NCBI GenBank assembly: GCA_964514965.1
Contig: CAZETV010000002.1
Location: forward strand, 188,545 to 220,544
DNA length: 32,000 nt
Reading direction: 5' to 3'
From: Candidatus Hadarchaeota archaeon
GTDB taxonomy: Archaea > Hadarchaeota > Hadarchaeia > Hadarchaeales > Hadarchaeaceae
The stretch's first letter is position 1; each line of letters begins with the position of its first letter. The position numbers were made by a program, and so were the translations under genes. This document shows positions 4,189 to 17,407 of the stretch, in pieces. Under the pieces are notes generated by a model. The model did no database searches. It saw nothing but the letters and a program-made list of their open reading frames with translations, and was not told the origin of the DNA.

Positions 4189-4224
4189 GGCACACTAAAA
4201 AGAGATTTCCTTCCAACAAATCTA

Positions 4225-4235
4225 TCGAATTTCGA
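4225..4235. promoter_or_regulatory. Perfect copy of palindrome TCGAAWTTCGA (tcgaatttcga), 7 nt from an AT-rich TATA-like element at 4243-4253
   Basis: Read directly. It lies in the divergent intergenic region between the coiled-coil/Sm operon and the MEDS/PadR gene. Confidence 0.55.
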
Positions 4236-4273
4236 CACGAAATTAATATAAAAGCTGCAATGTAGTCATTTTA

Positions 4274-5149
4274 GTGTCATCCATGGTGAGCGAGGTGTCT
4301 TCCAACATAGAAACCGTGCTGTCGAGCATCGAGTTCAAACACACTCTACACCTCTACAGCTCCGATGTGAACAAGTACTCGGTTCAGGCACCCTTCCTAG
4401 CGGCCGCAAAGAAGGGCGAAACCGTTGTATACGTCACCAACGAGAGCCCCGCAGCGATGATGAAGGAGTTTGAGGGACTCGGTATCAAACTTTCCGTCAT
4501 AAAGCCCGAAGAGTTAGGAAAATTACCAATCACCAATCGCGGTCTGAGAGTAGTCGTAGACGCTGGCTCGATCGACCCGAGCATGCTCCGAAGGCTGAGA
4601 AGTCGAACACGGGAAGCGATAGCTAAGTACATCGACCACTCCAAGCGGGAAAAATACTTGGCTGAGAGATGTAAAGACTGCCTCATCTTGTGCACTTACG
4701 ACATGGGCAAGCTCGGTCCCGATTTGGTCAAACAACTCGTCGCATCCCACGATAAGCTGGTGCTAACGACGAGCGATGCGACCATCCTAGCGGCGGAGTC
4801 GCTGGATCGGGCTGGGCTTGCGGCTGAATCGGTTCAGCGGTTTGTGAAGGATGAACTTGAGACCATAGTTCTGGCGCTCGTGCTCAGGGAGCCAATGTGC
4901 GGCACCGACATAATAAAAACAATCCACAGCAAGTTCAACGTACTTTTGAGCCCGGGCACGATATACCCTCTCTTGCACGACCTTGAGAAGAAGGGGCTAT
5001 TGAAATGCGAGTACGGCGTAAAGACTAAGACCTACAAGCCGATGGAAGGCGCCGAGGAAAAAATCCGCGCCATGCTTGAGGAGCACGTCAAAGCGAGCAG
5101 GTTCCTGAGCAAGTTTTTGCAGGTCACCAGCGCGAGCGAAAAGCGGTAA
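4274..5149 (+). CDS. Transcription regulator: N-terminal MEDS-like sensory domain plus C-terminal PadR-type winged helix
   Basis: 291 aa (GTG 4274, or ATG 4283). The C-terminus LVLREPMCGTDIIKTIHSKFNVLLSPGTIYPLLHDLEKKGLLKCEY..KTYKP fits the PadR signature. The N-terminus HTLHLYSSDVNKYSVQAPFLAAAKKGETVVYV resembles MEDS. It is a paralog of 15819..16805. Confidence 0.8.
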   Translation: MSSMVSEVSSNIETVLSSIEFKHTLHLYSSDVNKYSVQAPFLAAAKKGETVVYVTNESPAAMMKEFEGLGIKLSVIKPEELGKLPITNRGLRVVVDAGSIDPSMLRRLRSRTREAIAKYIDHSKREKYLAERCKDCLILCTYDMGKLGPDLVKQLVASHDKLVLTTSDATILAAESLDRAGLAAESVQRFVKDELETIVLALVLREPMCGTDIIKTIHSKFNVLLSPGTIYPLLHDLEKKGLLKCEYGVKTKTYKPMEGAEEKIRAMLEEHVKASRFLSKFLQVTSASEKR

Positions 5150-5161
5150 CGGTTTTAGCGT

Positions 5162-5172
5162 TCAAATTTCGA
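5162..5172. promoter_or_regulatory. One-mismatch copy of the TCGAAWTTCGA palindrome (tcaaatttcga) upstream of the RHH gene
   Basis: Read directly; it lies 58 nt upstream of the ATG at 5230. Confidence 0.4.
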
Positions 5173-5229
5173 AACACAAACTTATTAGGGATTTTTTCAG
5201 CGGACTTTATGTGGTGGGGGTGATTTCAG

Positions 5230-5436
5230 ATGCTCGGAAGGCGATCAATTATGGGGATTGTTTCCTCCGCGGATTACGATAAACTTCAAAATATGTGTGC
5301 TCGAGAGGGATGTCGCATCTCAGATATAGTCGGCAGAATCGTTTCCCAGTACTTGGCCAGAGTCCCCGCGGAAAAAGTTGTGAAAGTAAAGAAAATAAAA
5401 AGGATTAAAAAGGCCAAGAAACGGGCCCCCAAGTAA
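5230..5436 (+). CDS. Small ribbon-helix-helix (CopG/Arc-like) DNA-binding protein with a Lys-rich tail
   Basis: 68 aa. A GGTGAT Shine-Dalgarno sequence lies about 6 nt upstream of the ATG. IVSSADYDKLQNMCAREGCRISDIVGRIVSQYL fits the RHH strand-helix-helix pattern. The tail is KVKKIKRIKKAKKRAPK. Confidence 0.6.
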   Translation: MLGRRSIMGIVSSADYDKLQNMCAREGCRISDIVGRIVSQYLARVPAEKVVKVKKIKRIKKAKKRAPK

Positions 5437-5620
5437 AATCCGCTCAAAACGAGGTGAACCCATGGGAAAATTGAAGGAGTGGTTTCGTAAGAAATCGAAG
5501 CGTAAGGCAAAGAAAAAGGGAAAATGATTCAGGGTTGATGGCTCATCTTTTTGCTTCTCAATTACCACCTTCGAAATCAGCTAGAATTCAGGCCCATTTT
5601 AATGTCGGATTTCTTTTGCG

Positions 5621-6970
5621 ATGGGTTGTATGTTTTCGAAGCTCGACACAAAACGTTTAAATCCCGCATATATCGAAATTCGATACGAGATTAGATACAA
5701 GGTGAAGTGTGTGGAGGTAAAACCACTTAGTAATATCATAGCTATCGGAAAGACGACGCGGGGGGGCAGACCATTCCCTGTCAGAAGGCATCGGGGCCTG
5801 TACTTTTTCATCCCGGTTGAGCAGTTCGACTGGTTAAGGGAAGTAAATGATGCTTACAAGACCCTCTACCGAATGGAGGGGGGGGTAGAGCCGCTTCAGA
5901 AGATAAAGATAGTTGGGAGAGGAGGCGTTGAGGGATACAAGCCATTCTTGCTCAGGGGGCACTACGGACGGTATTTGTGCATCCTCGCCGAGCATCTTAG
6001 ACAGCTCAAGCAGATCAACCGCGCGTATGCGGAACTACTTGAAGCTAAAGGGCTGGAGAAAGAGCGCAAGAGGAGGTTAGAAGAGAAGGAACGAGCGAGC
6101 AAAATTGTAGAAAGCGTGAAAGCGGCGGTAGAGGACGCCCGAAAGATAGGAGCACCCGAACATGGGGCCGAACTCATGCGGCCCGTCGACGAATCCCTTG
6201 CCGAAATCGAGGCTGCGTTCATCGCCGAGGAATACAACAAGACCATTGAGCTGGCATCAAAAGTGGATGAACTGGTCCGAGAAGCTAGGGCAAAAGCGCT
6301 CAAGAAAATCGAGGAAACGAAAAAGATCGAAGCGGTGAAAAGACCTCCAGAAGAGGGGAGGTACGTTTACTGCATCATCCCTTGGGAGGGGAGCCACAGC
6401 AGGCTTAGCTTTGGAGACTTGGGTGTAGAGGGCAACGGCGAGGTGTACGCCATACCCTTTGGAGACATCGCAGCGGTCGTGAGCAACGCCCCCTTCAAGG
6501 AATACGTGCTCACCGAGGACAACATACGCACCCATAACCAAGTCATAACGCGCGTGATGCAGGAGTACCCTGTCGTGCCAATGGCTTTCGGCATGGCGTT
6601 CAAAAATGAGGGGGTGCTCAAAGGGTTGCTCGGGAGGATGCGCGATGATTTGAAAAATGCCCTAAATGAAGTCAAGAGCAAGGTCGAACTCGGCGTCAAG
6701 GTGATCTTGCCGGAGGGGACCGAGTTCGACGAGAACGCATTTGCATCTGAGATCAAGGCGCTTCACGAGCTGGCGACCCAATGCAAGCTCGGCAAGCGGT
6801 TCAGCAAGCGTTTGATCTTGAACGCGTTTTATCTAGTAGCGAAAGAAAAAGTGGAAGATTTCCTAGGCGCGGCTAAAGCGCTGGAGGAGAAGTTCAAACA
6901 GCTGAGTATACAGTGCACTGGTCCATGGCCCCCGTTCAACTTCGCAACAATAAAAGTTGGAGGTAGGTGA
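5621..6970 (+). CDS. gvpF: GvpF/GvpL-family gas vesicle protein with a novel N-terminal duplicated ~45-aa module and a coiled-coil linker
   Basis: The C-terminal ~200 aa (GRYVYCIIP...FGDIAAVVS...PVVPMAFG...CTGPWPPFNFA) is classic GvpF/L. The N-terminal ~130 aa holds two repeats homologous to the 101-aa ORF at 9969..10274. The true start may be GVG-type: GTG 5702 or 5711 (see findings). Confidence 0.9.
   Translation: MGCMFSKLDTKRLNPAYIEIRYEIRYKVKCVEVKPLSNIIAIGKTTRGGRPFPVRRHRGLYFFIPVEQFDWLREVNDAYKTLYRMEGGVEPLQKIKIVGRGGVEGYKPFLLRGHYGRYLCILAEHLRQLKQINRAYAELLEAKGLEKERKRRLEEKERASKIVESVKAAVEDARKIGAPEHGAELMRPVDESLAEIEAAFIAEEYNKTIELASKVDELVREARAKALKKIEETKKIEAVKRPPEEGRYVYCIIPWEGSHSRLSFGDLGVEGNGEVYAIPFGDIAAVVSNAPFKEYVLTEDNIRTHNQVITRVMQEYPVVPMAFGMAFKNEGVLKGLLGRMRDDLKNALNEVKSKVELGVKVILPEGTEFDENAFASEIKALHELATQCKLGKRFSKRLILNAFYLVAKEKVEDFLGAAKALEEKFKQLSIQCTGPWPPFNFATIKVGGR
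5673..5683. promoter_or_regulatory. Perfect copy of the TCGAAWTTCGA palindrome preceded by ATATA (atatatcgaaattcga), inside the nominal 5' end of the gvpF ORF
   Basis: Read directly. The same 16-nt arrangement ATATATCGAAWTTCGA occurs upstream of gvpN (14339-14354, opposite strand). Confidence 0.55.
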
Positions 6971-6971
6971 G

Positions 6972-7265
6972 GTGCCCTTCCTAGTCGATGACATAGTTCT
7001 CCGAATGCTCGGGATTTCGATCCCGCCCTTCGACATGATCTGGTTGCTGGAGACCATACGGGACTTCGCCGTTCGGGAAGTCTATGATCCTGAAAAGATA
7101 AGCGACTCGATAAAGGAAAACCGGATGCTCTACGAACTCGGGGAGATCACGAAGGAGGAGTATGAGCGGGTCAATACAGAGCTCCTCGAGGCGCTCGAGA
7201 TAGCAAAGCGTGCTAGGGAGACGAAGATCGAGCACCGCATCGATATTTTGGGAATTGGTGGGTAG
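6972..7265 (+). CDS. gvpG: Gas vesicle protein GvpG
   Basis: PFLVDDIVLRMLG...REVYDPEKISDSIKENRMLYELGEITKEEYERVNTELLEALE matches the GvpG pattern. A GTG at 6972 sits right after the gvpF stop, with GGAGGT at 6959-6964. The ORF track starts at TTG 6957. Confidence 0.85.
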   Translation: MPFLVDDIVLRMLGISIPPFDMIWLLETIRDFAVREVYDPEKISDSIKENRMLYELGEITKEEYERVNTELLEALEIAKRARETKIEHRIDILGIGG

Positions 7266-7266
7266 G

Positions 7267-7791
7267 ATGAAAAGGCACCCTATGCAACTATGCAGGCTCC
7301 TCTTTGGCAACATATTTCACGACCTAGAAAAGCTGGCGAGGACAGTAGATGCGCTCGCCAAAGAGGGAGAGGTCCGGAAGGGGTACAAAGAGGGCCCCTT
7401 CATCGTCGAGTACCGGCGGACCGTTCGCTACATCCGCCCTGAGTCCACCGCTCCAGCCCCCGAAGCACCGCGAATCGAAATCAAGCCGAAACCAATCGAG
7501 GCCGAGGCCAAGCCTAGGGAATCGCTAGTGGACGTTTTCGACATGGGAGATCATATCTTGGTCATGGTCGGGCTCCCCGGTGTGAAGGAGGAAGATATCG
7601 AGTTCGAGACCGTGGGCAGCGCGCTCAAGATCAAGATTCACACACCCGGTGGCGATGTCGAGGGCGATATCTCGATTGCGGGAGTTGAACAGGTTAAAGA
7701 AATCATGGGTGCCTCTTTCAAGAACGGCACCCTCGAAATCAAACTGAAAAAAATAAGGGAGGTGAAGAGATGGGAACCAGCACAGCGATAG
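7267..7791 (+). CDS. gvpH: Hsp20/alpha-crystallin domain protein in the GvpH slot
   Basis: The ATG at 7267 comes 1 nt after the gvpG stop. Alpha-crystallin domain: LVDVFDMGDHILVMVGLPGVKEEDIEFE...FKNGTLEIKLKK. The position between G and the basic I-slot gene matches halobacterial gvpH. Confidence 0.8.
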   Translation: MKRHPMQLCRLLFGNIFHDLEKLARTVDALAKEGEVRKGYKEGPFIVEYRRTVRYIRPESTAPAPEAPRIEIKPKPIEAEAKPRESLVDVFDMGDHILVMVGLPGVKEEDIEFETVGSALKIKIHTPGGDVEGDISIAGVEQVKEIMGASFKNGTLEIKLKKIREVKRWEPAQR

Positions 7792-8174
7792 GGGTCGGGG
7801 GGCTGAGGAGGCGCAGGCGAAAGGCCATGATATCTAAAACAGTTGCGCGGAGCAAGCTGAGCAGGGACAGATCGAGAGTCAAGCTGCTGCACGCGAGGGA
7901 GCGGTACAAGATGAAGGTGTGGAAGCACGAGCGCGGGATGGCAGCCAGAAAGGCGGAGCAACCAAGCAAGCTTGGTCCGCTTGCGGTATCGTTCATGCCT
8001 TCGAAAGAGTCCGCCAAGCGATCCAGGCTGGTGCAGCCCCGCTGGTCGGCCGTGCCCAGCAAGCCCAAGTATTCCGATGTGAAGCCGAAGGAGAGGCTCT
8101 ACGGGCTGAGGTTCGAGGCGCGCGAGAAGCGACTCGCAAAGCAGGAGTCCGAGGAGAAAAAGCCCAAGGAATAG
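7770..8174 (+). CDS. Very basic Arg/Lys-rich protein in the GvpI slot (possible GvpI analog)
   Basis: 134-aa ORF (an alternative ATG at 7827 would give 115 aa). Third-position codon usage is like its neighbours (aag/gag/ctg). It fills the H-J gap exactly. No motif beyond its basicity. The start is uncertain. Confidence 0.5.
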   Translation: MGTSTAIGVGGLRRRRRKAMISKTVARSKLSRDRSRVKLLHARERYKMKVWKHERGMAARKAEQPSKLGPLAVSFMPSKESAKRSRLVQPRWSAVPSKPKYSDVKPKERLYGLRFEAREKRLAKQESEEKKPKE

Positions 8175-8184
8175 GTAGGTGTGG

Positions 8185-8544
8185 ATGATGGTAGCTATCG
8201 CCCCGACAAGGGAGGGCCCGAGCGACTTAGCTCAAACAATCGAGAAGATTCTCGACAAGGGACTCGTGCTAGACGCCGACATCGCGGTTTCGGTCGCCGG
8301 TACCGAGTTGCTGGGCATAAAGATTCGCGCCGCACTCGCCTCTTTCGAAACCGCCGCGAAATATGGTCTCGAGTTTCCGAGCGGCGTCAACCTCAATGCC
8401 CCTGCATGGAAAGAGATAAACGTGAAAAAGGCGAAGTGCCCGGGCTGTGGAAACGAGTGTCCGGAGGAGGAGCTGCTCAAGCGGGGTTGTCCAATCTGTG
8501 GCTGGATGAGCCCGCTGAAGCCAAGACAGGCCCCGATCCCCTAG
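8185..8544 (+). CDS. gvpJ: GvpA/J/M-family protein (GvpJ slot) with a C-terminal CxxC...CxxC zinc-ribbon extension
   Basis: The core LAQTIEKILDKGLVLDADIAVSVAGTELLGIKIRAALASFETAAKYGL is the GvpA-family fold. The tail is KCPGCGNECPEEELLKRGCPICGW. AGGTAGGTG lies upstream of ATG 8185/8188. Confidence 0.85.
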   Translation: MMVAIAPTREGPSDLAQTIEKILDKGLVLDADIAVSVAGTELLGIKIRAALASFETAAKYGLEFPSGVNLNAPAWKEINVKKAKCPGCGNECPEEELLKRGCPICGWMSPLKPRQAPIP

Positions 8545-8553
8545 GTGGTAAAC

Positions 8554-8868
8554 ATGGCAATCGAGATCGATGAGTACAACCTCAAACAAGGGTTGCTGGG
8601 GCTGGTAGTCGCTCTCGCCGAAGTCATCCAAGAGGTGCTCGAGCACCAAGCGCTGCGGAGGATGGAGTCGGGTGGGCTGACCGATGCTGAGGTGGAGCGG
8701 CTCGGCAACGCTCTCATCGAGCTCGACGAGGCACTTGAACGCATCAAGCGGGAGAACGGAATCGAGGAGTGCGTGAGGTCCGTGCGAGATGGGCTCGACC
8801 AAGTAGCGGACGAGGCCATCCGTAAGCTAGCCGACCCGCAGGAGTGGGCAAGGGAGGCCACATCGTGA
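8554..8868 (+). CDS. gvpK: Gas vesicle protein GvpK
   Basis: LLGLVVALAEVIQEVLEHQALRRMESGGLTDAEVERLGNALIELDEAL matches the GvpK signature. AGGTGGT lies 4 nt upstream of ATG 8554. The ORF track starts at GTG 8545. Confidence 0.9.
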   Translation: MAIEIDEYNLKQGLLGLVVALAEVIQEVLEHQALRRMESGGLTDAEVERLGNALIELDEALERIKRENGIEECVRSVRDGLDQVADEAIRKLADPQEWAREATS

Positions 8869-9653
8869 ACGGAACCCAAAAAGCGACCGAGGGGAGGTAC
8901 CTATACTGTATAGCCAGCTGCGGCGATGGGTTGTCACTGGGAGAGATAGGGATAGACAAGGGCCAAGTTTACACGATTACGCATAACGACATCGCTGCAG
9001 TAGTACACGTTTGCCCGCCCAAGCCCTATGAGTCCAAGGACGAGGAGCGCGTGAAGCGCTGGGTCTTCACCCACAACTACATCATCGACCAAGCCACCAA
9101 GCGATTCGGCACGGTGCTGCCTTTCTCTTTCGATTCTATCGTCAAGGGGGACGACGACGCGGTGGAGGGATGGCTGAGCGAGAATTACTCCCGATTTAAA
9201 GGTGAGCTCGAGAGGCTCAGAGGGAAGTCGGAACACACGGTACAGATCTTCTGTGACGCCTCCTTGTTAGCGCGGAGGATTGAAAAAGACAACCAGGAGA
9301 TTGGGTGGCTCGCGGAAGAGATCAAAGTAGCTCCCAAGGGAAAAGCCCACCTACTCGAACGGAAGCTCCAAAAGATGATTAGGGAGGCCGTGGCAGCTCA
9401 GGTTCGCGATTGGTCCAAAAAGTTCCATGTGCAGATAGAAGAACATGTCGAGGAGGCGAGGGAGGAGCGAAGCAGGTTCGTGCCCGAGCGGTTCAAGGAT
9501 AAGAAACTCGTGCTAGGCCTATCGTGCTTGGTCAGCGAGGGGAAAGTCGAAAAACTCGGAGAGGTGCTCCGCCAAATAAACGAGCAAGAAGGGTTCTCGG
9601 TGCGGTTCACGGGGCCTTGGGCGCCATTCAGCTTTGTGAGGTTGACCAAATGA
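8865..9653 (+). CDS. gvpL: GvpF/GvpL-family gas vesicle protein (GvpL slot)
   Basis: GRYLYCIAS...HNDIAAVVH...TVLPFSF...FTGPWAPFSF. The GTG at 8865 overlaps the gvpK TGA (GTGA). The ORF track starts at 8844. Confidence 0.9.
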   Translation: MNGTQKATEGRYLYCIASCGDGLSLGEIGIDKGQVYTITHNDIAAVVHVCPPKPYESKDEERVKRWVFTHNYIIDQATKRFGTVLPFSFDSIVKGDDDAVEGWLSENYSRFKGELERLRGKSEHTVQIFCDASLLARRIEKDNQEIGWLAEEIKVAPKGKAHLLERKLQKMIREAVAAQVRDWSKKFHVQIEEHVEEAREERSRFVPERFKDKKLVLGLSCLVSEGKVEKLGEVLRQINEQEGFSVRFTGPWAPFSFVRLTK

Positions 9654-9883
9654 GGCCGACGCGGGAGTGCGGGCTCGTCGAGTTGCTCGATAAGATTTTG
9701 GACAAGGGCGTGGTGCTCAACGCAGATGTTATCATCTCGGTCGCTGGGGTTCCACTGGTGGGGGTGAGCCTCCGCGCTGCGCTTGCCGGAATCGAAACGA
9801 TGTTGGACTACGGCATAATGGAGGCTTGGGACCAGAGCATTAGGGAGCATTACTCAGAGGAGCTGGCGAAGAGAAAAGCGTAG
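9650..9883 (+). CDS. gvpM: Small GvpA/J/M-family protein (GvpM slot)
   Basis: 77 aa from the ATG at 9650, which overlaps the gvpL stop (ATGA). Core: LVELLDKILDKGVVLNADVIISVAGVPLVGVSLRAALAGIETMLDYG. Confidence 0.85.
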   Translation: MRPTRECGLVELLDKILDKGVVLNADVIISVAGVPLVGVSLRAALAGIETMLDYGIMEAWDQSIREHYSEELAKRKA

Positions 9884-9910
9884 GTGGGGCTTGCAGGGAA
9901 TGCTATTTCT

Positions 9911-9936
9911 GCTTGATTATGGCTGAAAAATCAAGC
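9911..9936. terminator. Hairpin between the two convergent gvp operons (possible bidirectional terminator)
   Basis: gcttgatt (9911-9918) and aatcaagc (9929-9936) form a perfect 8-bp stem with a 10-nt loop. T-rich runs flank it on both sides, within the 85-nt convergent gap. Confidence 0.5.
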
Positions 9937-9968
9937 CACTGCTTTCTTGCATTTACCTGCTTCCTTTG

Positions 9969-10274
9969 TTAAAGCTCTCGATACGCTTCGTTGACCGCCC
10001 GAAGCCGCTCGAAGTCCTCCGCAAGGATGCAGAGGCAGCGTTCCCCCCTCACAAGAAATAGCTTGAAACCAAGTACGCCACCTCTGCCCACGATTTTTGG
10101 CTTGCTGAGTGGCTTCACCTTGGCCCTCCCCCTAGACAGCGCCTTGTAAGCTTCATTAATTTTCAGTAGTCTCTCGATGTCCCTTGCCGAGATAAATAAA
10201 TAGTCGCCTTTTTGCCCGGTGATTCTGAATGGCTCCTCGGTCCCTCGCTTACCTATAACCTTTATCCTCTTCAA
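9969..10274 (-). CDS. Stand-alone two-repeat protein, paralog of the N-terminal module of the gvpF fusion
   Basis: 101 aa (TTG start). IKVIGKRGTEEPFRITGQKGDYLFISARDIERLLKINEAYKAL plus KIVGRGGVLGFKLFLVRGERCLCILAEDFERLRAVNEAYREL. These align with IIAIGKTTRGGRPFPVRRHRGLYFFIPVEQFDWLREVNDAYKTL and KIVGRGGVEGYKPFLLRGHYGRYLCILAEHLRQLKQINRAYAEL of 5621..6970. Confidence 0.7.
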   Translation of the reverse strand: MKRIKVIGKRGTEEPFRITGQKGDYLFISARDIERLLKINEAYKALSRGRAKVKPLSKPKIVGRGGVLGFKLFLVRGERCLCILAEDFERLRAVNEAYREL

Positions 10275-10385
10275 CGCTCTTACCGCCAGAGGTTCACCTT
10301 CATCCAGTCCCTCTTACCCATAGGGTTTTTCCATTTCCTTTCGCCCTTCGACATATCGCATGAACTCCCGCATGATGTCCTCGTA

Positions 10386-12551
10386 CTACCTTACCATCTC
10401 CGGAGTCATCGTCGGTCGAACCTTCTTTATCGCCCCATCGAAGTGCTTGCACTCGATCCGCTTGTCCTTGAGCGCCTTCCGCATCGCTTCCTTAGTCATC
10501 CCGGGCTTAATCGCCTCCCGGAGCGAGAGCATCACTGCCTCCCTGCATATCGCCGCTATGTCCGCGCCCACGTAGCCTTCGGTCCCCTTGGCGAGCGCGC
10601 TCAAGGAAACGTCCTTTGCAAGAGGTTTCTCCTTGAGGTGGACCTTGAAGATTTCCTCGCGCTCCTTCGGGTCGGGAGGTAGAACGTAAATCAGCCTGTC
10701 GATTCGGCCCGGCCTCAGCAGCGCCCGGTCGATCATGTCGGGCCGGTTGCTAGCGCACAGCACGAGCACATCCTTCAGCTCCTCCAACCCATCGAGTTCG
10801 GTCAACATCTGACTAACGACGCGCTCGGAGACATGCGAGTCGAAACTCACCGCGCGCGTCGGGCACATCGCATCGATTTCATCGAAAAAGACGATGCAGG
10901 GGCTTGCTTGCCTCGCCTTCCTGAACATCTCCCTCACGCCCCGCTCGCTCTCGCCAACCCACTTCGACAGCAGCTCTGGGCCTTTAATCGAGATGAAGTT
11001 CGCCTCGCTCTCGGTCGCGACGGCCTTCGCCAGCATTGTCTTGCCAGTGCCGGGGGGTCCGAACAATAAAATCCCCTTGGGGGGCTTGGTCTTGAAGCGC
11101 TCGAAAGCTTCGGGGTACTTGAGTGGCCACTCCACCGCCTCGATCAGCTCCTGTTTTGCCTGCTCCAAGCCGCCTATGTCATCCCAGTGCACGTTGGGGG
11201 CTTCGATGAACACCTCCCGCATCGCGCTGGGAGTCACAGTCTTGAACGCATTTGAAAAATCATTCATCGTGACTTCAAGTGCCTCAATGATCTCAGCTGG
11301 AATCTCCTTCTCGATCTCGATTTTCGGCAGGATCTTGCGCAGGGCGCTCATCGCCGCCTCCTTGCATAGCCCAGCGAGGTCAGCGCCTACAAAGCCGTGA
11401 GTTATGTCGGCGAGGTAGTTGAGGTTGACATCTTCTGTGAGTGGCATCCCGCGCGTGTGGATCTGCAGGATCTCGTAGCGCCCGTTTCGGTCTGGGATGC
11501 CTATCTCGATTTCGCGGTCGAATCTTCCTCCTCGGCGCAACGCCTCATCGAGAAGGTTGGGTTGGTTAGTTGCACCAATTACAACAACTTTTCCGCGCGT
11601 CTTAAGACCATCCATCAGCGAGAGAAGTTGCGCCACCACCCGCCGCTCAACCATCCGCTCCCCAGTCATCTCCGAGCGTTTTGGGGCAATCGCGTCTATC
11701 TCATCGATTAGGACGATCGCTGGAGGGTTCGCCTCCGCCTGCTCGAATATCTCCCTGAGGCGGGCCTCTGACTCCCCATAGTACTTACCGATCACTTCTG
11801 GACCCGAGACGAAAACGAAGTTCGCATCGGTCTCGTTTGCTACCGCCTTCGCTATTAGCGTTTTGCCTGTGCCTGGGGGGCCATGGAGCAGTACCCCTTT
11901 AGGGGGCTCAATCCCCAGCCTCTGAAAGAGTTCGGGATGCTTTAGCGGTAGCTCGATCATCTCACGGATGAGTCCTACCTCGCGCTTCAGCCCGCCGATG
12001 TCCTCGTAGGTGACGTAGGTCCGCATAGCCTCGATTGGCTTCTCTGCGAGCGTGACCTCGGTCTCCGGGACAACGATAACAACGCCCGTGGGCTGGGTGG
12101 AGGTGACGATGAAAGTAAGTGGTCTACCTAGAATATCGACTCGAATTTGCTGGTCCTTGATGATCGGCTGCCCCTCGAGCACCTTGCGGATGTACTCGTC
12201 GCCCTCCACTATCCTTATCGGCTCCGTGGGGGCAACACTTATTCTCCTCGCCTTCTCGGCGGCGGCCTTCCTGATCTCAACCCGCTCACCGATTCCAATG
12301 CTTGCGTTGCTCCGAATGTTACCATCGATCCGAATTATCCCACTGCCCGAATCCTCGGGATAGCACGGCCAAACAATCGCGTAAGCAGACCCCTTCCCCT
12401 TAATCTCGACGATGTCCCCGCTGACCATACCTAACTTTTTCATCACCTCTGAGTCTACCCGCGCTATCCCCCGACCTGCGTCGCGGTGCTTCGCCTCAGC
12501 AACTAGCAGGATTTGGGGCACGTTACCACGATTTTGTTCTCGCTTCCTCAA
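10386..12551 (-). CDS. cdc48: Cdc48/VCP-type double AAA+ ATPase
   Basis: 721 aa. N-domain: [27 protein letters not shown]. Two Walker A sites ([18 protein letters not shown]) with matching Walker B/SRH regions. The start is uncertain (TTG 12551 or GTG 12521). Confidence 0.95.
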
Positions 12552-12585
12552 CCTTTAAACGTGAAAAAAATGTGCTCGATACGGG

Positions 12586-12873
12586 TCATGTCATAAATTC
12601 TAATCCCTCTCGATCAGACCTGCGCCTTACCCGCACCTGATTGAACCCCTGTACTCCGCCATCCTCGCTGAGCGAGAGTTCGTACCTGCCGATCAAATCC
12701 TGAGCGTCGGGTATCGCTTTTCGCTCGAGCACTTCAACGAGCAGTTTCCACCCTCCCCCCTTCTCCTTCGAGACACCGATCACCGACTCAAACGGTTTCT
12801 TTATTGTCTCCTTGACAAATGCCGGAGCCATGTCAACTATCTCGACCGCTTTCCTCTCTTTTTTCTCCGCCAT
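12586..12873 (-). CDS. gvpO: Gas vesicle protein GvpO
   Basis: 95 aa from the ATG at 12873, preceded by AGGAGGT. VIGVSKEKGGGWKLLVEVLERKAIPDAQDLIGRYELSLSEDGGVQGFNQVRVRRRSD fits the GvpO pattern. The longer ORF-track start would overlap the upstream gene. Confidence 0.85.
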   Translation of the reverse strand: MAEKKERKAVEIVDMAPAFVKETIKKPFESVIGVSKEKGGGWKLLVEVLERKAIPDAQDLIGRYELSLSEDGGVQGFNQVRVRRRSDREGLEFMT

Positions 12874-12883
12874 GTTTAACCTC

Positions 12884-13249
12884 CTACGGCACGTAGATGT
12901 AGCCACCGCGCTTGTAGGGTACCACCTTGACGCTTTTGCCCTTCCAGTTCGCAACCCCCTCACGGACGTTATAGCGCTCCACATCTTTGGCCAGCTTGTA
13001 GTATTTGAGGAACTTCGCAAATCGCTGCTGCTTGGCCCTGCCGCCCGCGCGGAGCGCCGATGTGCTGAAAGTGCCGTCCGATTTTAGTCGTAAGTAAAAC
13101 GTCGTGCTCACGGTTCGCCCGTCTGGAGTTTTAGCCGCCACTATTACAGCATCGGTGTCTGCGATTGTCAGCCCTGGTGGCTTCTTCCGCCATAGCTTGC
13201 TTATCTTGCAGACCCTTACATCCTCTATCGTCGCACTCAACCTTTCCAT
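12884..13249 (-). CDS. Hypothetical protein inserted between gvpN and gvpO
   Basis: 121 aa. The ATG at 13249 is preceded by GGTGAGGT, 10 nt after the gvpN stop, and the gene's stop lies 10 nt before the gvpO ATG. Codon usage is like its neighbours. No family recognised. Confidence 0.7.
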   Translation of the reverse strand: MERLSATIEDVRVCKISKLWRKKPPGLTIADTDAVIVAAKTPDGRTVSTTFYLRLKSDGTFSTSALRAGGRAKQQRFAKFLKYYKLAKDVERYNVREGVANWKGKSVKVVPYKRGGYIYVP

Positions 13250-13259
13250 AACCTCACCC

Positions 13260-14288
13260 CTAACTTGGTATCACCTCTTTCACGAGGCGTTGCTTATTGA
13301 CAAGATCGACGGGCCCCTTAACCTTCGTCGCTAAGATATCGAGAACCAGTTCTTCGAGCCGCTTCTCGCCGTCGCCTAGCACCATGAGTCCTTGAGCGAC
13401 CATTATACAGGCCCGCGTCCCAGGCTTCTCGGCATCGGGCAGTTTTTCCCTTATCTTTCTGATAATCTCCACTATCCTCCGCGCATCTGCGTCGGATACT
13501 CCCGAATGCGCCGTCGTGATCTCCACCTCGGTCTCTGGGTCGTAGAAGTCCATGTAGATTCCAACGGTGCGATCAAGCAGCGCGTCCTGCGGGCGGTGCA
13601 CCCCGGCGTAGTCGACCGAGTTGCTCGTGAATATCGCCATGAATTCCGGATGGGCCTTGATGTATCGCTCCTCGCCGAATCGCGTGGGGAGTTCCAGCAC
13701 GCCCTCTTGGAACACCGAAAGCAGGACGTTGTTAGCTTCAGGCTTCGCTCGGGAGAAATCGTTATAGACGAAGATGTAACCATTCTTGCACGCGATCGTC
13801 AGCGGGTTGTCCACCCAACCAGCTTTCAGGATATTTTTCGCCTTGAGGACGGTGTGAACGTAACGGTCGCGGATGCTCTCACTCTCCACCTGTGAGTAAC
13901 CACCAACGAGATCAGTCGTAGTCATTGACTCGTCTCCGTTCAGCCAGACCGTCGGCTTTCCCAGCTCTTCGGCCACTTTCATCGCGAGCGTGGTCTTCCC
14001 GCAGCCGGTCGGGCCAATGATGTGAACAGGGTAGCCGGCGTTGAGCCAGAGCTTCACCTTCTCCTTGAGTTTTTTGACTTGCTCGGTCTCGACGAAATGC
14101 TCGACCTTCGGCATCAGGTATCTGGTCTCCACCGTTTCAGCAGCGAGTTCAGGTCTCACAGTAATCGCTCGCTTAACGAATTCCGCGCGCTTCGCACGTT
14201 CCTCGCGCCACCGCTCTTTTGCCTCCTCCAAGGTCTCGGTGATTCGCTCTCCCCTGACTTTCTTAGGATGGGCCCGTCTCCATCTCAC
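13260..14288 (-). CDS. gvpN: Gas vesicle protein GvpN (MoxR-like AAA+ ATPase)
   Basis: FVETEQVKKLKEKVKLWLNAGYPVHIIGPTGCGKTTLAMKVAEELG. The 342-aa length is typical. The GTG at 14288 is preceded by GGAGG. Confidence 0.92.
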   Translation of the reverse strand: MRWRRAHPKKVRGERITETLEEAKERWREERAKRAEFVKRAITVRPELAAETVETRYLMPKVEHFVETEQVKKLKEKVKLWLNAGYPVHIIGPTGCGKTTLAMKVAEELGKPTVWLNGDESMTTTDLVGGYSQVESESIRDRYVHTVLKAKNILKAGWVDNPLTIACKNGYIFVYNDFSRAKPEANNVLLSVFQEGVLELPTRFGEERYIKAHPEFMAIFTSNSVDYAGVHRPQDALLDRTVGIYMDFYDPETEVEITTAHSGVSDADARRIVEIIRKIREKLPDAEKPGTRACIMVAQGLMVLGDGEKRLEELVLDILATKVKGPVDLVNKQRLVKEVIPS

Positions 14289-14338
14289 ATAATTGCCTCC
14301 GCTAACCCCTCCATGATAGGCTTATTTAGTTTTTCGTT

Positions 14339-14349
14339 TCGAAATTCGA
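14339..14349. promoter_or_regulatory. Perfect copy of the TCGAAWTTCGA palindrome abutting a TATA-like ATATAT element upstream of gvpN
   Basis: Plus strand tcgaaattcgatatatct. Read on the gvpN strand this is AGATATATCGAATTTCGA, 51-61 nt upstream of GTG 14288. Confidence 0.55.
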
Positions 14350-14397
14350 TATATCTAAGAAGTAAAATTTGAAAAAAGTAAGGGAATCAACCGTTAG

Positions 14398-14577
14398 CTA
14401 CTCGTACCAAAAGTCATTTACGTACTTGCCCACATCTTCTTTGTGGTATCTTTCAATCTCGTTTTGAAATTTTTTGGCTTCTCCGAGTAACTCCTTAGCG
14501 CCCCGTTCGATTTTTTTCACCGCAGCATCAATCGCTGCGCGCTTCGCCATCACGCCAGTCTTTTCCTTTTCAGCCAC
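14398..14577 (-). CDS. Short helical Lys/Glu-rich protein, paralog of 14637..15065 (GvpC slot)
   Basis: GVMAKRAAIDAAVKKIERGAKELL...FQNEIERYHKEDVGKYVNDFWYE aligns with both ends of the 142-aa neighbour. The GTG at 14577 follows a G6 Shine-Dalgarno-like run. The ORF track starts at TTG 14595. Confidence 0.6.
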   Translation of the reverse strand: MAEKEKTGVMAKRAAIDAAVKKIERGAKELLGEAKKFQNEIERYHKEDVGKYVNDFWYE

Positions 14578-14603
14578 CCTGCGCCCCCCTAACAATCATA
14601 ATT

Positions 14604-14630
14604 TGATAATAAATAAAAATAAAAGAAAGG
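14604..14630 (-). terminator. Oligo-T-rich stretch after the 142-aa gene (archaeal terminator-like; may also carry a TATA element)
   Basis: The minus strand reads CCCTTTCTTTTATTTTTATTTATTATC directly after the TAG at 14637-14639. Confidence 0.4.
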
Positions 14631-14636
14631 GGTAAT

Positions 14637-15065
14637 CTAACCGTACCAGAAGTTTTGGATAGCGTTACTGAAGTCTTCTTTCCTGTACCGCTTGAACTCG
14701 TTGCCTAACCGCTTGCATTCGTTGCTTAACTTCTTTGCATTGCTCAGGATTTGTTCGGTCCCCTTGCCGATCTTCGCTACTGCCTCCTCGTTCTCTTTGA
14801 CTTGCGCTTGGATCGCCGACTGAAGTTCACCTGCCCCAGTCTCTATCTTTTTGACAGCTTCCTCCACTTTATTGGTTGTCTCTTTAACTGCTGCTGTCAT
14901 CTGCTTGACTCCCTCGGTCATTCGTCTCTCTCCTTCTTTGTAAATGTCTTTGCCTGCTTTTTGAACATCTCTACTTGTCTTCTCAATCGCGGCACGCTTC
15001 GCTAAAACCCCCTTCTTCCCAATCTTCGGTTTTTCCACCTTAGGTGTATACTCCTCTTCTACCAT
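14637..15065 (-). CDS. Helical Lys/Glu/Ala-rich protein immediately downstream of gvpA (GvpC slot)
   Basis: 142 aa. GGGGGT lies 5 nt upstream of the ATG. The sequence is low in hydrophobic residues and repeat-like (AVKETTNKVEEAVKKIETGAGELQSAIQAQVKENEEAVAKIGKG). The C-terminus is EFKRYRKEDFSNAIQNFWYG. Confidence 0.7.
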   Translation of the reverse strand: MVEEEYTPKVEKPKIGKKGVLAKRAAIEKTSRDVQKAGKDIYKEGERRMTEGVKQMTAAVKETTNKVEEAVKKIETGAGELQSAIQAQVKENEEAVAKIGKGTEQILSNAKKLSNECKRLGNEFKRYRKEDFSNAIQNFWYG

Positions 15066-15088
15066 TTTCTACCCCCTAAATAATTGAA

Positions 15089-15107
15089 CGGGCCCTCGCG
15101 GGGCCCG
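15089..15107 (-). terminator. GC-rich hairpin between gvpA and the next gene (attenuator/terminator-like)
   Basis: cgggccc (15089-15095) pairs with gggcccg (15101-15107): a 7-bp G/C stem with a 5-nt loop, 24 nt after the gvpA stop. Confidence 0.5.
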
Positions 15108-15130
15108 CCACGATCTCAGGCCGAGGCTCT

Positions 15131-15352
15131 CTAAGGCGCAGCTGGTGCACCGATCGCAGCTGCCTCGATTTTCGTCATCTCTTCCGCGTAGTGGACGAAG
15201 GTGTCGACTGACGCCACTACCACACGAGCCTCAACAGTAAGTATCTCAATTCCAACTAGCGAAACTCGTGCCCAGACATCGACGACAATCCCCTTGTCGA
15301 GGATTCGATCGAGAACCTCTGCCAAGTTACTAATTGCTGGTCTAGCTGCCAT
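15131..15352 (-). CDS. gvpA: Major gas vesicle structural protein GvpA
   Basis: 73 aa. [48 protein letters not shown] is near-canonical GvpA. GGGAGGT lies 6 nt upstream of the ATG. Confidence 0.97.
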
Positions 15353-15389
15353 TTCCTAACCTCCCTATTTTTTCATATGAACTTCCCCG

Positions 15390-15818
15390 ATGTTTTTAAA
15401 CGAATTTTTTCTCGAAACTCACATCAGGAGTTGTTTTGAAATTCGAAAGTTGCATGATTCAGAAAGTTTATTTACAATCAATTCCAACTCTAAACGATGG
15501 GGTGAAGATTTGTCTGCTCGTAGAAATTTTTACAGAAGGATTGAGTTGCGCAGGGCATGGCTCGAGCGAAAGAAGCGAGCGACCGCCGCGATACAGGATC
15601 TCCGCTGGAAGCGACGGGCAGCCAAGCTGGGGAAAAAGCCTGCCCCTGAGGAAAAAGAAGCCCCAACTGAGGAAAAGGCCCCCGTGGAGGAAACCAGAGA
15701 GGAAGTTCCCGAAGAGAAAGCTCCCCAAGCGCCAAAAGATGAAGCGCCTGAGAAAAAGCCCACAGAAGAGGCGCCGCCCGAGAAGACTGGAGTCCCGCCC
15801 GCGCTCTTTCCCGAGTAA
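15390..15818 (+). CDS. Possible low-complexity protein: basic N-terminal half, Pro/Glu/Lys-rich (PEEK-type) C-terminal half
   Basis: 142-aa ORF divergent from gvpA. Several frames are open here because of GA-rich low complexity. This frame has neighbour-like codon choice (gag/aag/gcc). The nominal ATG overlaps the gvpA TATA box, so the start is doubtful. Confidence 0.3.
   Translation: MFLNEFFLETHIRSCFEIRKLHDSESLFTINSNSKRWGEDLSARRNFYRRIELRRAWLERKKRATAAIQDLRWKRRAAKLGKKPAPEEKEAPTEEKAPVEETREEVPEEKAPQAPKDEAPEKKPTEEAPPEKTGVPPALFPE
15393..15400 (-). promoter_or_regulatory. Candidate gvpA TATA box (TTTAAAAA on the gvpA strand)
   Basis: It lies 41-48 nt upstream of the gvpA ATG, leaving room for a leader of about 20 nt that carries the Shine-Dalgarno sequence. 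Confidence 0.5.
15436..15446. promoter_or_regulatory. One-mismatch copy of the TCGAAWTTCGA palindrome (ttgaaattcga) about 36-46 nt upstream of the gvpA TATA box
   Basis: Read directly. This is a UAS-like position relative to the putative TATA at 15393-15400. Confidence 0.45.
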
Positions 15819-16805
15819 TCACTTCCGAATAGAATCGAGCAGATATTTTTGAGCCGAGATGAAATCGTTTATTTTATCCTCCGCCACCCGCTTGCCCTCC
15901 TCAGTCAGCGTATAGACCTTCGAGCGCAGGTTCCCAGATTTCATGTCCAGAAGCTCGCGCCTTTTCAAGTCGTACAAAAGTGGGTAAACGGTGCCCTGGC
16001 TGAGGAAGGTGTGGTACTTCCGATAAATCGTCCGGATCAGATCGTAGCCGCACATCGGGTTTCGCAATAGCAGGGAAAGGGTGATGACCTCGAGGTGCTT
16101 CTTGACGAGCCTTTCCAAGGCTTTTCTGGGAATGGTCTCGGTTGAGAGCAGGCTTGGCAACTCGGATGAGCGGTAGTTGAATATCGACATTCGGTGCTCG
16201 TTGCGCGTCGAAACCACGACGTTTTCATGGAACTCCAACAACCTTCCGACCGCGTCATCCCTCAGGAAGTTGACATTGAATGCCGTTATCATCCGAAGCG
16301 GAAGGGATGATTTCACATTTCTCTGTTTGTATCTTCTCCTACCCCAGGCCAAGGGGATCTTCTCGCCCCTCTTCTCTAGGATTCCCCTCACGCAATCGAT
16401 GATAGTGTCGAAGGTGCTACGGGTCGGCAAAGAGCCGAAGTCAATACCCACCCTTATACCTTTGCCCTCTTGGGATCTGACGCGCCTGCATAATTCCCAA
16501 ACCTTGGAATTGAGTTCTTTGATTCCCCGCAAAATCCCTCCCTTCTCCATCGGGAGGAGATACAGCTTACCGGCTTCAACATACTTCCCGAGAACGTTCT
16601 CCGGATGTAGCTGGTCCTCCGTATTGTCGTACGCGAAAATACAGAGCTCGTCGTTCTCCAAACCACTCTCGATGAAAGAGAGAAGTGCCCCATAGACCTC
16701 GGTGCCTTCCCCATACAGAAAAAGTGAACAATCGTTTTTTTTCTGCTTGAAAAGAAAGACTTTATCGCTGATTGGCAGGGACACTTGTTGACCAACAGCC
16801 GTCAT
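15819..16805 (-). CDS. Transcription regulator: MEDS-like domain plus PadR-type winged helix (paralog of 4274..5149)
   Basis: 328 aa. LLLRNPMCGYDLIRTIYRKYHTFLSQGTVYPLLYDLKRRELLD...KVYTLTEEGKRV fits the PadR signature. The N-terminus CSLFLYGEGTEVYGALLSFIESGLENDELCIF parallels the other copy. Confidence 0.8.
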   Translation of the reverse strand: MTAVGQQVSLPISDKVFLFKQKKNDCSLFLYGEGTEVYGALLSFIESGLENDELCIFAYDNTEDQLHPENVLGKYVEAGKLYLLPMEKGGILRGIKELNSKVWELCRRVRSQEGKGIRVGIDFGSLPTRSTFDTIIDCVRGILEKRGEKIPLAWGRRRYKQRNVKSSLPLRMITAFNVNFLRDDAVGRLLEFHENVVVSTRNEHRMSIFNYRSSELPSLLSTETIPRKALERLVKKHLEVITLSLLLRNPMCGYDLIRTIYRKYHTFLSQGTVYPLLYDLKRRELLDMKSGNLRSKVYTLTEEGKRVAEDKINDFISAQKYLLDSIRK

Positions 16806-16810
16806 CGCCG

Positions 16811-16822
16811 CCCCCCCCCCCC
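16811..16822. repeat. Homopolymer C12 (G12 on the coding strand), 5 nt upstream of the ATG of the MEDS/PadR gene
   Basis: Counted directly: gtcatcgccg cccccccccc ccgacg. Confidence 0.95.
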
Positions 16823-17020
16823 GACGAATGAAGTTTTGCTAGACCCCTGTTGGTGTGGCGGGAGCGCGGCATAGAACTCCGATTTTTACCCGCTATAGGT
16901 GAACCTCCTCCCGTCTCTAACATGTCCAGCCTCCGAAATCTGGGTCAAGAGTTCCACCGGATGAAGTGAAAATGAACCCTAGAATAAAAGAGAGTCTAGC
17001 ATTTTTATCCGTTTTCATTT

Positions 17021-17031
17021 TTGAAATCCGA
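17021..17031. promoter_or_regulatory. Two-mismatch copy of the palindrome (ttgaaatccga) in the divergent region between the MEDS/PadR-2 and wHTH genes
   Basis: Read directly. This is weaker than the other sites. Confidence 0.3.
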
Positions 17032-17098
17032 AACGAAAGTCGTTTTGTAAATCGAAAAAATACAAAAGGGCGCGCTGTGATTTTATAGCGGGATTAGA

Positions 17099-17407
17099 TT
17101 GGACGTGAAAACCTTGAACACACTGAAGGAACTTGAAAGGTCCGGCACGGTGCCGATACTCTTAGCCATAAGCCGACTGGGGAGAGGGAAATTTACCGAC
17201 ATCCATTACGAGAGCATCCGGATGGGCTTTAGGGTCGGGAGCGGTGTCGTCAGCAGGCGACTTGACCAGTTATGCGCTCTGGGATGGGTTCAAAAGATAA
17301 AGAATGAAGAAAGGAGTAAAGTTTTCACCCTAACCGAGAAGTGGTTAAGGCTAGCTAAAGCTATCAAGGAATTCATCCGAAGTTTAGAACGAAACAAAGT
17401 TGAGTAA
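17099..17407 (+). CDS. Small winged-helix (MarR/ArsR-like) DNA-binding protein
   Basis: 102 aa (TTG 17099 or GTG 17105). The ...GTVPILLAISRLGRGKFTDI...GVVSRRLDQLCALGWVQKIKNEERSKVFTLTEKW pattern reads as helix-turn-helix plus wing. Confidence 0.65.
   Translation: MDVKTLNTLKELERSGTVPILLAISRLGRGKFTDIHYESIRMGFRVGSGVVSRRLDQLCALGWVQKIKNEERSKVFTLTEKWLRLAKAIKEFIRSLERNKVE

Follow-up and report, generated by a model that had tools for sequence, protein, structure and literature searches.

A conserved palindrome at the promoters of an archaeal gas-vesicle cluster: a candidate regulon operator for a MEDS-PadR regulator

The subject of this analysis is a 32,000-nucleotide stretch of DNA (the window) from Candidatus Hadarchaeota archaeon (GenBank assembly GCA_964514965.1, contig CAZETV010000002.1, positions 188,545 to 220,544 of the forward strand), which carries a cluster of gas-vesicle (gvp) genes. 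To our knowledge, archaeal gas-vesicle regulation is understood only for the haloarchaea (GvpD/GvpE). A palindromic element with the core TCGA-N3-TCGA is present at the promoters of this cluster and of related clusters. It is specific to gvp clusters and conserved in position, and the gene for a PadR-type regulator is almost always linked to gvp genes. The palindrome is almost certainly a cluster-specific conserved cis element acting as an operator, as judged from its over-representation, its restriction to linked promoters and its conserved position in diverged flanks. We propose, with a probability of about 0.6, that it is the operator of a gas-vesicle regulon and is bound by a dimeric winged-helix regulator encoded in the cluster. 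This is most likely MEDS-PadR-1 (MP1; 4274-5149, plus strand, with an in-frame ATG at 4283), possibly with its paralog MEDS-PadR-2 (MP2; 15819-16805, minus strand). The binder, the transcript starts and the sign of regulation are all inferred.

An earlier note on this DNA had described the element as an 11-bp palindrome, TCGAAWTTCGA, and had judged its three perfect copies to be non-random. An exact search of the window confirms this. The perfect copies lie at 4225-4235, 5673-5683 and 14339-14349, where 0.02 are expected, and three or more were found in none of 100 dinucleotide-preserving shuffles (the background for all window counts). Allowing one mismatch adds just the two copies already listed, at 5162-5172 (TCAAATTTCGA) and 15436-15446 (TTGAAATTCGA). 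This gives a total of five against 1.21 expected, with five in one of the 100 shuffles. The two-mismatch class is not enriched (20 against 13.8 expected). The relaxed core TCGA-N3-TCGA has five matches in the window against 0.88 expected, a number that none of the shuffles reaches. It brings two extra copies, one in the gvpF promoter (5636-5646) and one in the coding sequence of MEDS-PadR-1 (4322-4332). The 16-mer ATATATCGAAWTTCGA, reported as shared by two sites, is indeed common to 5668-5683 (plus strand) and 14354-14339 (minus strand).

It had also been suggested that copies within genes might have been missed. This holds for the relaxed core, with the copy at 4322, and does not hold for the strict form, which is absent from coding sequence throughout the window. 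The window is contained in a 41-kb Logan contig and in a 245-kb NCBI contig. Past its right edge, 8.8 kb of source contig contain one further copy, which is intragenic. No copy was found at housekeeping promoters in the window or in these 8.8 kb.

Comparative data strengthen the original proposal of a locus-specific, non-random regulon operator at gvp promoters. The related set consists of 58 loci after removal of redundancy, with 590 kb of sequence, of which a greedy call of open reading frames (ORFs) leaves 12% as intergenic. The loci were gathered by anchoring on the MEDS-PadR gene and are given L numbers below; enrichment was tested over all 590 kb. In intergenic DNA, TCGA-Nx-TCGA occurs 36 times with a spacing of N3 and only zero to three times with each other spacing from N0 to N9. 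The comparison of intergenic with coding DNA, which the earlier note had recommended, was run on these loci and favours the proposal: inside gvp clusters the density of TCGA-N3-TCGA is 0.66 per kb in intergenic and 0.07 per kb in coding DNA, and outside them it is 0.14 and 0.016 per kb, respectively. The matches sit at orthologous promoters (MEDS-PadR, gvpF, gvpJ, gvpN and gvpA) amid diverged flanks. Where gvpJ and an unknown 134-amino-acid (aa) gene (U134) have promoters of their own in relatives, these also have a site upstream. In L095 (NCBI metagenome-assembled genome (MAG) GCA_011605775.1), whose regulator is 55% identical, sites occur at five promoters. Its gvpA site is a perfect TCGAAGTTCGA, which validates the one-mismatch gvpA copy of the window.

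The motif itself has to be revised. The specified core is TCGA-N3-TCGA with a free centre rather than TCGAAWTTCGA, and with its flanking positions the dyad is about 15 bp long, TnTCGA-N3-TCGAnA. In a distant clade, in which the regulator is 43-48% identical and its gene lies within the gvpN-O operon, TATCG-N5-CGATA is found in 15 of 18 non-redundant gvpA promoters (19 matches in 415 kb). The gvpN promoters of this clade carry a degenerate form in which CG is changed to CA/TG (TTCAATTTTTGACACAAAT). The retention of TATCG...CGATA at this distance indicates that the outer arms are the oldest part of the operator. The gvpA and gvpN promoters of the distant clade (Bathyarchaeia-like; for example L036, 6700-6830 and 7860-7940) also share the sequence TTGAATATTnCTTAA(A/G)TA, about 25 nt downstream of the operator. 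This may be the BRE/TATA region (BRE, transcription factor B recognition element) or the site of a second regulator; no counterpart was seen in the window.

Two classes of site can be distinguished from their promoter geometry. In type A, the palindrome is followed by exactly two bases, then C(G/A)AAA and then a TATA box. This arrangement was found in 42 unique contexts, and the A and C directly after the palindrome are invariant or nearly so. The archaeal BRE consensus is CGAAA directly 5' of the TATA box. Since CGAAA abuts the TATA box here, type A sites would be centred near -44 and would touch the BRE. Four sites of the window belong to this class (4225, 5162, 5636 and 14339) and, with gvpJ in relatives, it is represented at five promoters. 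The sequences read TCGAATTTCGA-CA-CGAAA-TTAATATAAAA at 4225, TCGAATTTCGA-AA-CGAAA-AA-CTAAATAAG at 14339 (on the gvpN strand) and, at 5636, the core followed by CACAAAAC-GTTTAAAT. In type B, the 15-bp palindrome is followed by CGAgATTaGATA..GGTG and lies between the TATA box and the Shine-Dalgarno (SD) sequence and start of gvpF; the same is seen at gvpJ in relatives. The gvpF and gvpJ promoters have both classes, 35-38 bp apart and flanking the TATA box.

In archaea, activation generally proceeds from upstream of the BRE/TATA and repression from downstream of the TATA box. The two classes occupy these two positions, as with other position-dependent archaeal regulators, although the rule is drawn from unrelated protein families. 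Type A would thus be an activator-type and type B a repressor-type position. The ATATA beside the 5673 and 14339 copies had been taken for a TATA box. This reading was rejected: the ATATA most likely belongs to the 15-bp palindrome TATCGAAnTTCGATA as its outer arm, and the conserved BRE/TATA is elsewhere. Given that the majority of sites precede the TATA boxes, a role of the palindromes at the RNA level is improbable too.

The best-conserved site is that of MEDS-PadR-1. The operator TATCGAATTTCGACA (4223-4237, with a perfect core at 4225-4235) lies between this gene and a divergent unit containing coiled-coil and LSM genes. It is followed by the putative MEDS-PadR-1 promoter (4238-4253, plus strand), with a BRE-like CGAAA at 4238-4242 and a TATA box, TTAATATAAAA, at 4243-4253, assigned from the archaeal promoter consensus. 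Both are kept in position and sequence in orthologous promoters: the block TCGAnnnTCGA-cA-CGAAA-TTgATATAAAA persists down to 51% protein identity and is also present in L038 (46%). No lineage in which the gene has a separate promoter lacks the site. A transcript start is predicted near 4274-4283, so that the mRNA would be leaderless or nearly so; for the other promoters of the window, starts are predicted near 5686, 14303 and 15370. On the minus strand, about 20 nt from the palindrome, is a TATA-like box, TCTTTTTAG (4196-4204), of the coiled-coil/LSM unit. The block GGAAATCTCTTTTTAG at this box is kept in L007, L008, L009, L011 and L027, and the region is a candidate promoter for that unit. 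The intragenic copy TCGAGCATCGA (4322-4332) is ambiguous. It is kept in close relatives, and it encodes a conserved peptide, LSSIEF, so its conservation says nothing about DNA binding. Directly 3' of MEDS-PadR-1 is the operator of a 68-aa gene (5160-5188, plus strand; core 5162-5172, the one-mismatch copy), followed by aACACAAA and CTTATTAG, which are BRE/TATA-like. This site is a perfect TCGAATTTCGA in L006, L007, L008, L009, L011, L020 and L027.

The gvpF promoter has two operators, of which the inventory in the earlier note had missed the distal one. This operator (TTTCGAAGCTCGACA, 5634-5648, plus strand; core 5636-5646, TCGAAGCTCGA) is immediately upstream of a BRE-like CACAAAAC, and its core is 37 nt upstream of the 5673 site. 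It is TCGAAGCTCGA or TCGAATTTCGA in L007, L017 and L020, and degenerate in L008/L027. The probable TATA box is GTTTAAAT (5655-5662, plus strand), with TTTAAAT at 5656-5662; cTTAAAA/TTTAAAT is kept between the paired operators of gvpF promoters and also in the gvpJ promoters of relatives. The proximal operator TATCGAAATTCGATA (5671-5685, core 5673-5683) is a perfect 15-bp palindrome between the TATA box and the SD sequence and GTG at 5711. At least 10 relatives keep the sequence TATCGAAnTTCGATA-CGAgATTaGATA..GGTG in front of gvpF, and L008, L011 and L027 have it in front of gvpJ; the gvpF sites of relatives are mostly paired. The proximal site had been called repressor-type. Its position downstream of the TATA box agrees with this, although that box is probably TTTAAAT and not ATATA.

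The gvpF gene itself (5711-6970, plus strand; Pfam GvpL_GvpF) likely starts at GTG 5711 (or 5702) rather than at ATG 5621: orthologs align from residue 31 of the long ORF, and an SD-like AGGTGA is present at 5699-5704. With a length of about 420-450 aa, the product of this ORF (5621-6970) is the first protein of the GvpF/L family in the locus, and its Pfam match begins only at residue 246. Some 215 N-terminal residues without a family match are kept in close relatives (tblastn, from residue 31 onward).

The gvpN promoter (14321-14351, minus strand) consists of the operator TATCGAATTTCGAAA (14351-14337, core 14339-14349), CGAAA at 14336-14332 and the TATA box CTAAATAAG at 14329-14321. In an alignment of seven gvpN upstream regions this palindrome/BRE/TATA block is the sole conserved island, and it is also present in L014, L086, L090, L093 and L095. 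The site had been considered repressor-type. The conserved BRE/TATA (ACGAAAAA-CTAAATAAG) is on the other side, which places the site upstream of the BRE in an activator-type position.

The gvpA promoter (15393-15448, minus strand) has a distal site, TCGAATTTCAA (core 15446-15436), a proximal TTTCGAGA (15418-15410) and a TATA box, TTTAAAAA (15400-15393). The distal site is about 35 nt upstream of the TATA box; its left half, TTTCGAAT, is conserved and its right half variable. Both this left half and a proximal TTCGAGAAAAAAT beside the TATA/BRE are kept in L014, L086, L090 and L093. The interval from gvpA to MEDS-PadR-2 is taken up on the other strand by a putative gene, a 142-aa ORF rich in acidic Pro/Glu/Lys repeats (EEKAP-like; 15390-15818, plus strand). 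It contains the distal gvpA operator, and its start codon, an ATG, coincides in part with the gvpA TATA box. The source assembly has a gene call for it, and there is a 90-aa counterpart in L086.

The remaining copy, with two mismatches (17021-17031), is in a block (17017-17062) between MEDS-PadR-2 and a gene for a small winged helix-turn-helix protein (wHTH; 102 aa, 17099-17407, plus strand, with weak Pfam HTH_27/MarR matches). Its core alone is indistinguishable from chance and makes a poor palindrome. The surrounding block of about 40 nt (cGATTTACAAAACGAtTTTCGTTTcGGATTTCAAAA), in contrast, is kept upstream of MEDS-PadR-2 in L086, L090, L092 and L093 and partly in L088. TTTCGrATTTCAAAA is common to this block and the distal gvpA site, and the two may form a separate subclass that is read by the MEDS-PadR-2 paralog.

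Several lines of evidence point to MEDS-PadR as the probable binder. The C-terminal 100 or so residues of MEDS-PadR-1 are a bona fide PadR domain by Pfam, by profile and by fold. The Pfam PadR match (PF03551, cut-off 27 bits) has an E-value of 1.9e-08 (34.6 bits) for MP1 and 1.3e-10 for MP2. A profile of 30 family members matches the PadR structures 5h20, 4esb and 5dym at about 1e-06 among PDB sequences. In an AlphaFold2 (AF2) model of MEDS-PadR-1 (predicted local distance difference test score, pLDDT, 78), the C-terminal part superposes on 1xma, 4esf, LmrR and Rv3488 with target template-modelling (TM) scores of 0.70-0.80 and root-mean-square deviations of 2.4-3.0 over about 100 residues. For the N-terminal part the model shows a RecA/F1-ATPase-like fold, and no Walker A motif was seen in the MEDS-PadR-1 sequence; many homologs carry a precomputed match to the MEDS domain (PF14417). 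MP1 and MP2 are only 25% identical, and a helix stretch, LSxGTxYPLL, is nearly identical in the two. The best-conserved site being at the MEDS-PadR-1 promoter is the usual signature of autoregulation, and a 15-bp dyad is in line with the palindrome of 18 bp that a PadR dimer recognises (PMC5728393). For the canonical DNA contacts of PadR, made by two tyrosines and one basic residue (PMC5728393), the picture is mixed: in the MEDS-PadR family alignment the Tyr of GTIYPLL and the Tyr of the wing (KTY) are invariant, and K250/K252 nearly so, but MP1 departs from the usual GY (see below).

Linkage to gvp genes is close. MEDS-PadR-1 has 340 homologs (E<1e-5), in MAGs labelled Bathyarchaeia, Thermoplasmatota and 'Thaumarchaeota'. 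A metagenome scan with the family alignment gave 80 loci, in all of which gvp genes adjoin the regulator. This indicates a family of gas-vesicle-cluster regulators, though the collection was anchored on the regulator. A separate scan of a collection of genome contigs with GvpN returned only spurious bacterial AAA matches. Six more loci were retrieved via the MP2 paralog, whose orthologs adjoin gvpA in L014, L086, L087, L090 and L093. In one locus (L088/L089), an MP1 and an MP2 ortholog (81% and 70% identity, respectively) are arranged tail to tail. The wHTH gene accompanies them, and no gvp genes occur within 6 kb; the MP1 ortholog retains a perfect palindrome and BRE/TATA. Either the gvp genes are elsewhere in the genome or the regulators have outlived the cluster. 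The neighbours on the 300-kb contig (L088, 5730-8100, and L089) are genes for glycosyltransferases, RNase HII and ribonucleotide reductase. L092, also retrieved via MP2, has no gvp gene in its 13.6 kb.

PadR-domain proteins are the only type of regulator that was found in every clade. A 68-aa protein, labelled as ribbon-helix-helix (RHH) in the earlier note, was rejected as a general binder: it has no Pfam support, and its gene is absent from most loci with several sites.

The mechanism is probably as follows. A dimer on a type A site would contact TFB/TBP from the edge of the BRE and activate transcription, including that of its own gene; the activation is suggested by the fixed 2-nt distance of these sites from the BRE. 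On the type B site of gvpF, which is between the TATA box and the transcript start, a dimer would cover about -15 to -1 and block polymerase recruitment, imposing repression or a ceiling on the gvpF operon. The paired sites of gvpF and gvpJ might then produce a band-pass or ceiling response, or two dimers might be bridged via their MEDS domains. The gvpA promoter has its distal site some 35 nt from the TATA box and a conserved half-site beside the BRE. The suggestion that one dimeric factor has opposite effects at different promoters is compatible with this geometry.

Several points weigh against the proposal. PadR-family proteins are classically repressors, which counts against the activation part. 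The BRE and TATA boxes were assigned solely by consensus, and the invariant A and C 3' of the palindrome could belong to the operator and not to the BRE. The MEDS score of MP1 (29.4 bits) is just under the Pfam cut-off (29.8 bits), and that of MP2 is 18.5 bits. At a position where we take GY to be usual in PadR proteins, MP1 has GT (PMCGT), while MP2 has GY. In addition, the wHTH of the close clade, or small PadR and HTH_5 proteins of the distant clade, could be the binder, and the presence of MEDS-PadR at every motif-bearing locus is partly a matter of construction, the collection being anchored on it.

The last two points lead to the possibility that the operator is the same but is bound by the 102-aa wHTH, by small PadR/HTH proteins of related clusters or by a regulator encoded elsewhere, with the MEDS-PadR genes as targets. 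The wHTH would be the chief candidate along with such other factors. All close-clade loci retrieved via MP2 have its homolog no more than about 1.2 kb upstream of MEDS-PadR-2, a distant-clade cluster (L094) contains two small PadR genes and an HTH_5 gene, and the anchoring means that MEDS-PadR presence is no independent test of the binder. However, the upstream region of the wHTH gene has just a poor two-mismatch copy, whereas the MEDS-PadR-1 promoter has the site that is conserved best. The 12-kb L095 locus, despite its five sites, yielded no wHTH homolog, and none was detected in any distant-clade locus although these loci keep the outer palindrome. We regard another binder as unlikely.

A second reading accepts a PadR-like regulator but makes the system purely repressive: all sites would be bound in the absence of a signal, masking BRE/TFB contacts and the gvpF initiation region, with release through sensing by the MEDS domain. 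Characterised PadR proteins are repressors that bind palindromes at the promoters they control and are released by a ligand (PMC5728393). Overlap with the BRE would be expected for a 15-bp footprint that ends 0-2 nt from CGAAA, and the most perfect palindrome is the one in repressor position. Simple occlusion, however, does not need the strictly fixed 2-nt distance between palindrome and BRE seen at five promoters and across lineages. Such a fixed distance is typical of activator sites, as in the case of GvpE (PMC2241852), and at gvpA the distal site, with its distance of about 35 nt from the TATA box, is too far upstream to occlude the core promoter. Pure repression is less likely than not, but is a serious alternative.

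The fixed register with the BRE/TATA at most sites would also suit an extended core-promoter element for a dedicated TFB/TBP paralog, or a DNA-structural element marking a promoter class. This is very improbable: the palindrome also occurs downstream of the TATA box (proximal sites of gvpF and gvpJ) and about 35 nt upstream of it (gvpA), its dyad symmetry points to a dimeric binder, and it is absent from housekeeping promoters in the window and the 8.8 kb beyond. As for chance clustering, a by-product of TCGA-specific restriction-modification or a small repeat element, TCGA is a common restriction-site palindrome and the two-mismatch class lacks enrichment. Against this, the observed numbers of perfect copies and of relaxed cores were reached in none of the shuffles, the N3 spacing alone is enriched and only in intergenic DNA of clusters, and the sites are placed orthologously in diverged flanks with no repeat unit around them. 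The chance of such an origin is close to nil.

The proposed operator can be compared with known systems. The GvpE upstream activating sequence (UAS) of the haloarchaeal PA and PD promoters is bipartite, about 20 nt long and directly upstream of the BRE; any change in the UAS-BRE distance abolishes activation, and two divergent promoters with just 35 nt between them share one central element (PMC2241852). The palindrome is likewise a cis element specific to archaeal gas-vesicle promoters, at five of which it is 2 nt from a BRE-like box, and the 4225 copy lies between divergent TATA-like boxes about 36 nt apart. It differs in that its sequence (dyad TCGA-N3-TCGA) is unrelated and in the extra site downstream of the TATA box at gvpF. 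In contrast to GvpD/GvpE, the protein proposed as binder combines a MEDS domain with a PadR winged helix, and the hosts are non-halophilic uncultured archaea. No Pfam match to gvpD or gvpE homologs was found among 20 scanned ORFs of the locus, nor did the regulators, including MEDS-PadR, give any GvpD, GvpE or GvpD/KaiC-type Pfam match at E-values up to 5.

With the PadR regulators (Bacillus subtilis PadR, LmrR) the system shares the PadR domain, a dyad operator of about 15 bp and a site at the regulator's own promoter. Unlike in these, the winged helix is C-terminal to a RecA-like (MEDS) domain of about 180 residues and not N-terminal to a short dimerisation helix, the host promoters are of the archaeal TATA/BRE type, the half-sites differ in sequence and spacing, and most sites are in an activator-type position. 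Regulators of the DcmR type combine MEDS with a DNA-binding domain. The MEDS-PadR proteins similarly have a MEDS-like sensor (with a marginal MEDS score) and a DNA-binding domain in one polypeptide, but this domain is PadR and the targets are gas-vesicle and not dehalogenase genes. A literature search retrieved nothing linking PadR/MEDS proteins to gas vesicles, and no description of gas-vesicle clusters or gvp regulation in the Hadarchaeales-related lineage or Bathyarchaeia.

The gene content of the locus given in the earlier note was confirmed by Pfam, the RHH label excepted. The LSM and coiled-coil genes are on the minus strand, divergent from MEDS-PadR-1. On the plus strand, gvpF, gvpG, a small heat-shock protein (sHSP)-like gene, an unknown gene, gvpJ, gvpK and gvpL form one unit with gvpF first. 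The minus strand carries gvpA, two small coiled-coil genes, gvpN, an unknown gene, gvpO and a CDC48-type ATPase gene. The latter (10386-12551) encodes a double-AAA ATPase and is a conserved member of the gvp cluster in all clades examined; the L094 cluster also holds a DnaJ-fused GvpL/F gene and an HSP70 gene. This suggests that dedicated chaperones or unfoldases help in gas-vesicle assembly. The window includes a RuBisCO large-subunit gene (2025-3320), and its CTP synthase is 73-76% identical to proteins labelled Hadarchaeales/Hadesarchaea.

The leader of MEDS-PadR-2 (16806-17000, minus strand) is conserved at the nucleotide level over about 150 nt in L086, L088, L090, L092 and L093. A hairpin is present in relatives (TTCCACT-gcatca-AGTGGAA), and just before the ATG is a homopolymeric G-run (C-run at 16811-16822) of 12 in the window and 8-10 in relatives. 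The leader encodes a conserved basic peptide, ..GGSPxxGKxxSxxPRxRxTxRxxAKL.., which is in frame with the regulator in L090/L093 (calls of 356-365 aa) and in another frame in the window, L086 and L088. A coupled upstream ORF, a G-run frameshift or phase switch, or a homopolymer assembly error are all possible. Rfam returned no known RNA anywhere in the window, including this leader.

A second palindrome, TATCAT-N5-ATGATA (19168-19184), is located beside the gvp cluster, where an sHSP (HSP20-like) operon and a gene of 118-132 aa diverge, and is flanked by the TATA-like boxes CATATATAAAT and TTTTTATAAC. In its outer arms, TATC...GATA, it is similar to the gvp operator, with a spacing 2 bp longer. 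In L011, L063 and L094, TCGA-N3-T(C/T)GA is found upstream of the sHSP gene in its place.

The operator and regulon proposed here are of a kind already known; the results suggest that the binder is an uncharacterised one and that the regulatory code spans several uncultured archaeal lineages. More tentatively, and with somewhat less than even confidence, the MEDS-PadR proteins may be the master gas-vesicle regulators in several uncultured lineages of non-halophilic archaea (with source labels Hadarchaeia-like, Bathyarchaeia and Thermoplasmatota-like). A single ancient operator of 15 bp would serve them in two registers (as a UAS next to the BRE at most promoters and as a repressing site 3' of the TATA box at gvpF/gvpJ), with paralogs maybe reading two subclasses. 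If true, they would do the work of GvpD/GvpE with unrelated components, and the MEDS domain would couple buoyancy to a signal.

The operator, the promoter positions and the candidate binders together provide a regulatory code that can be tested, for gas-vesicle clusters in uncultured archaea of sediments and the subsurface. By this code, gvpA would be co-regulated with the gvpN-O-CDC48 and gvpF-L units and with the regulators, and in some lineages also with sHSP genes. A single TATA box flanked by a UAS-type and an operator-type site would constitute a compact model of position-dependent archaeal regulation, and the operator and its regulator could become parts for the controlled heterologous expression of gas vesicles. 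For the MEDS-PadR family, with its hundreds of members, this would be a first biological role.

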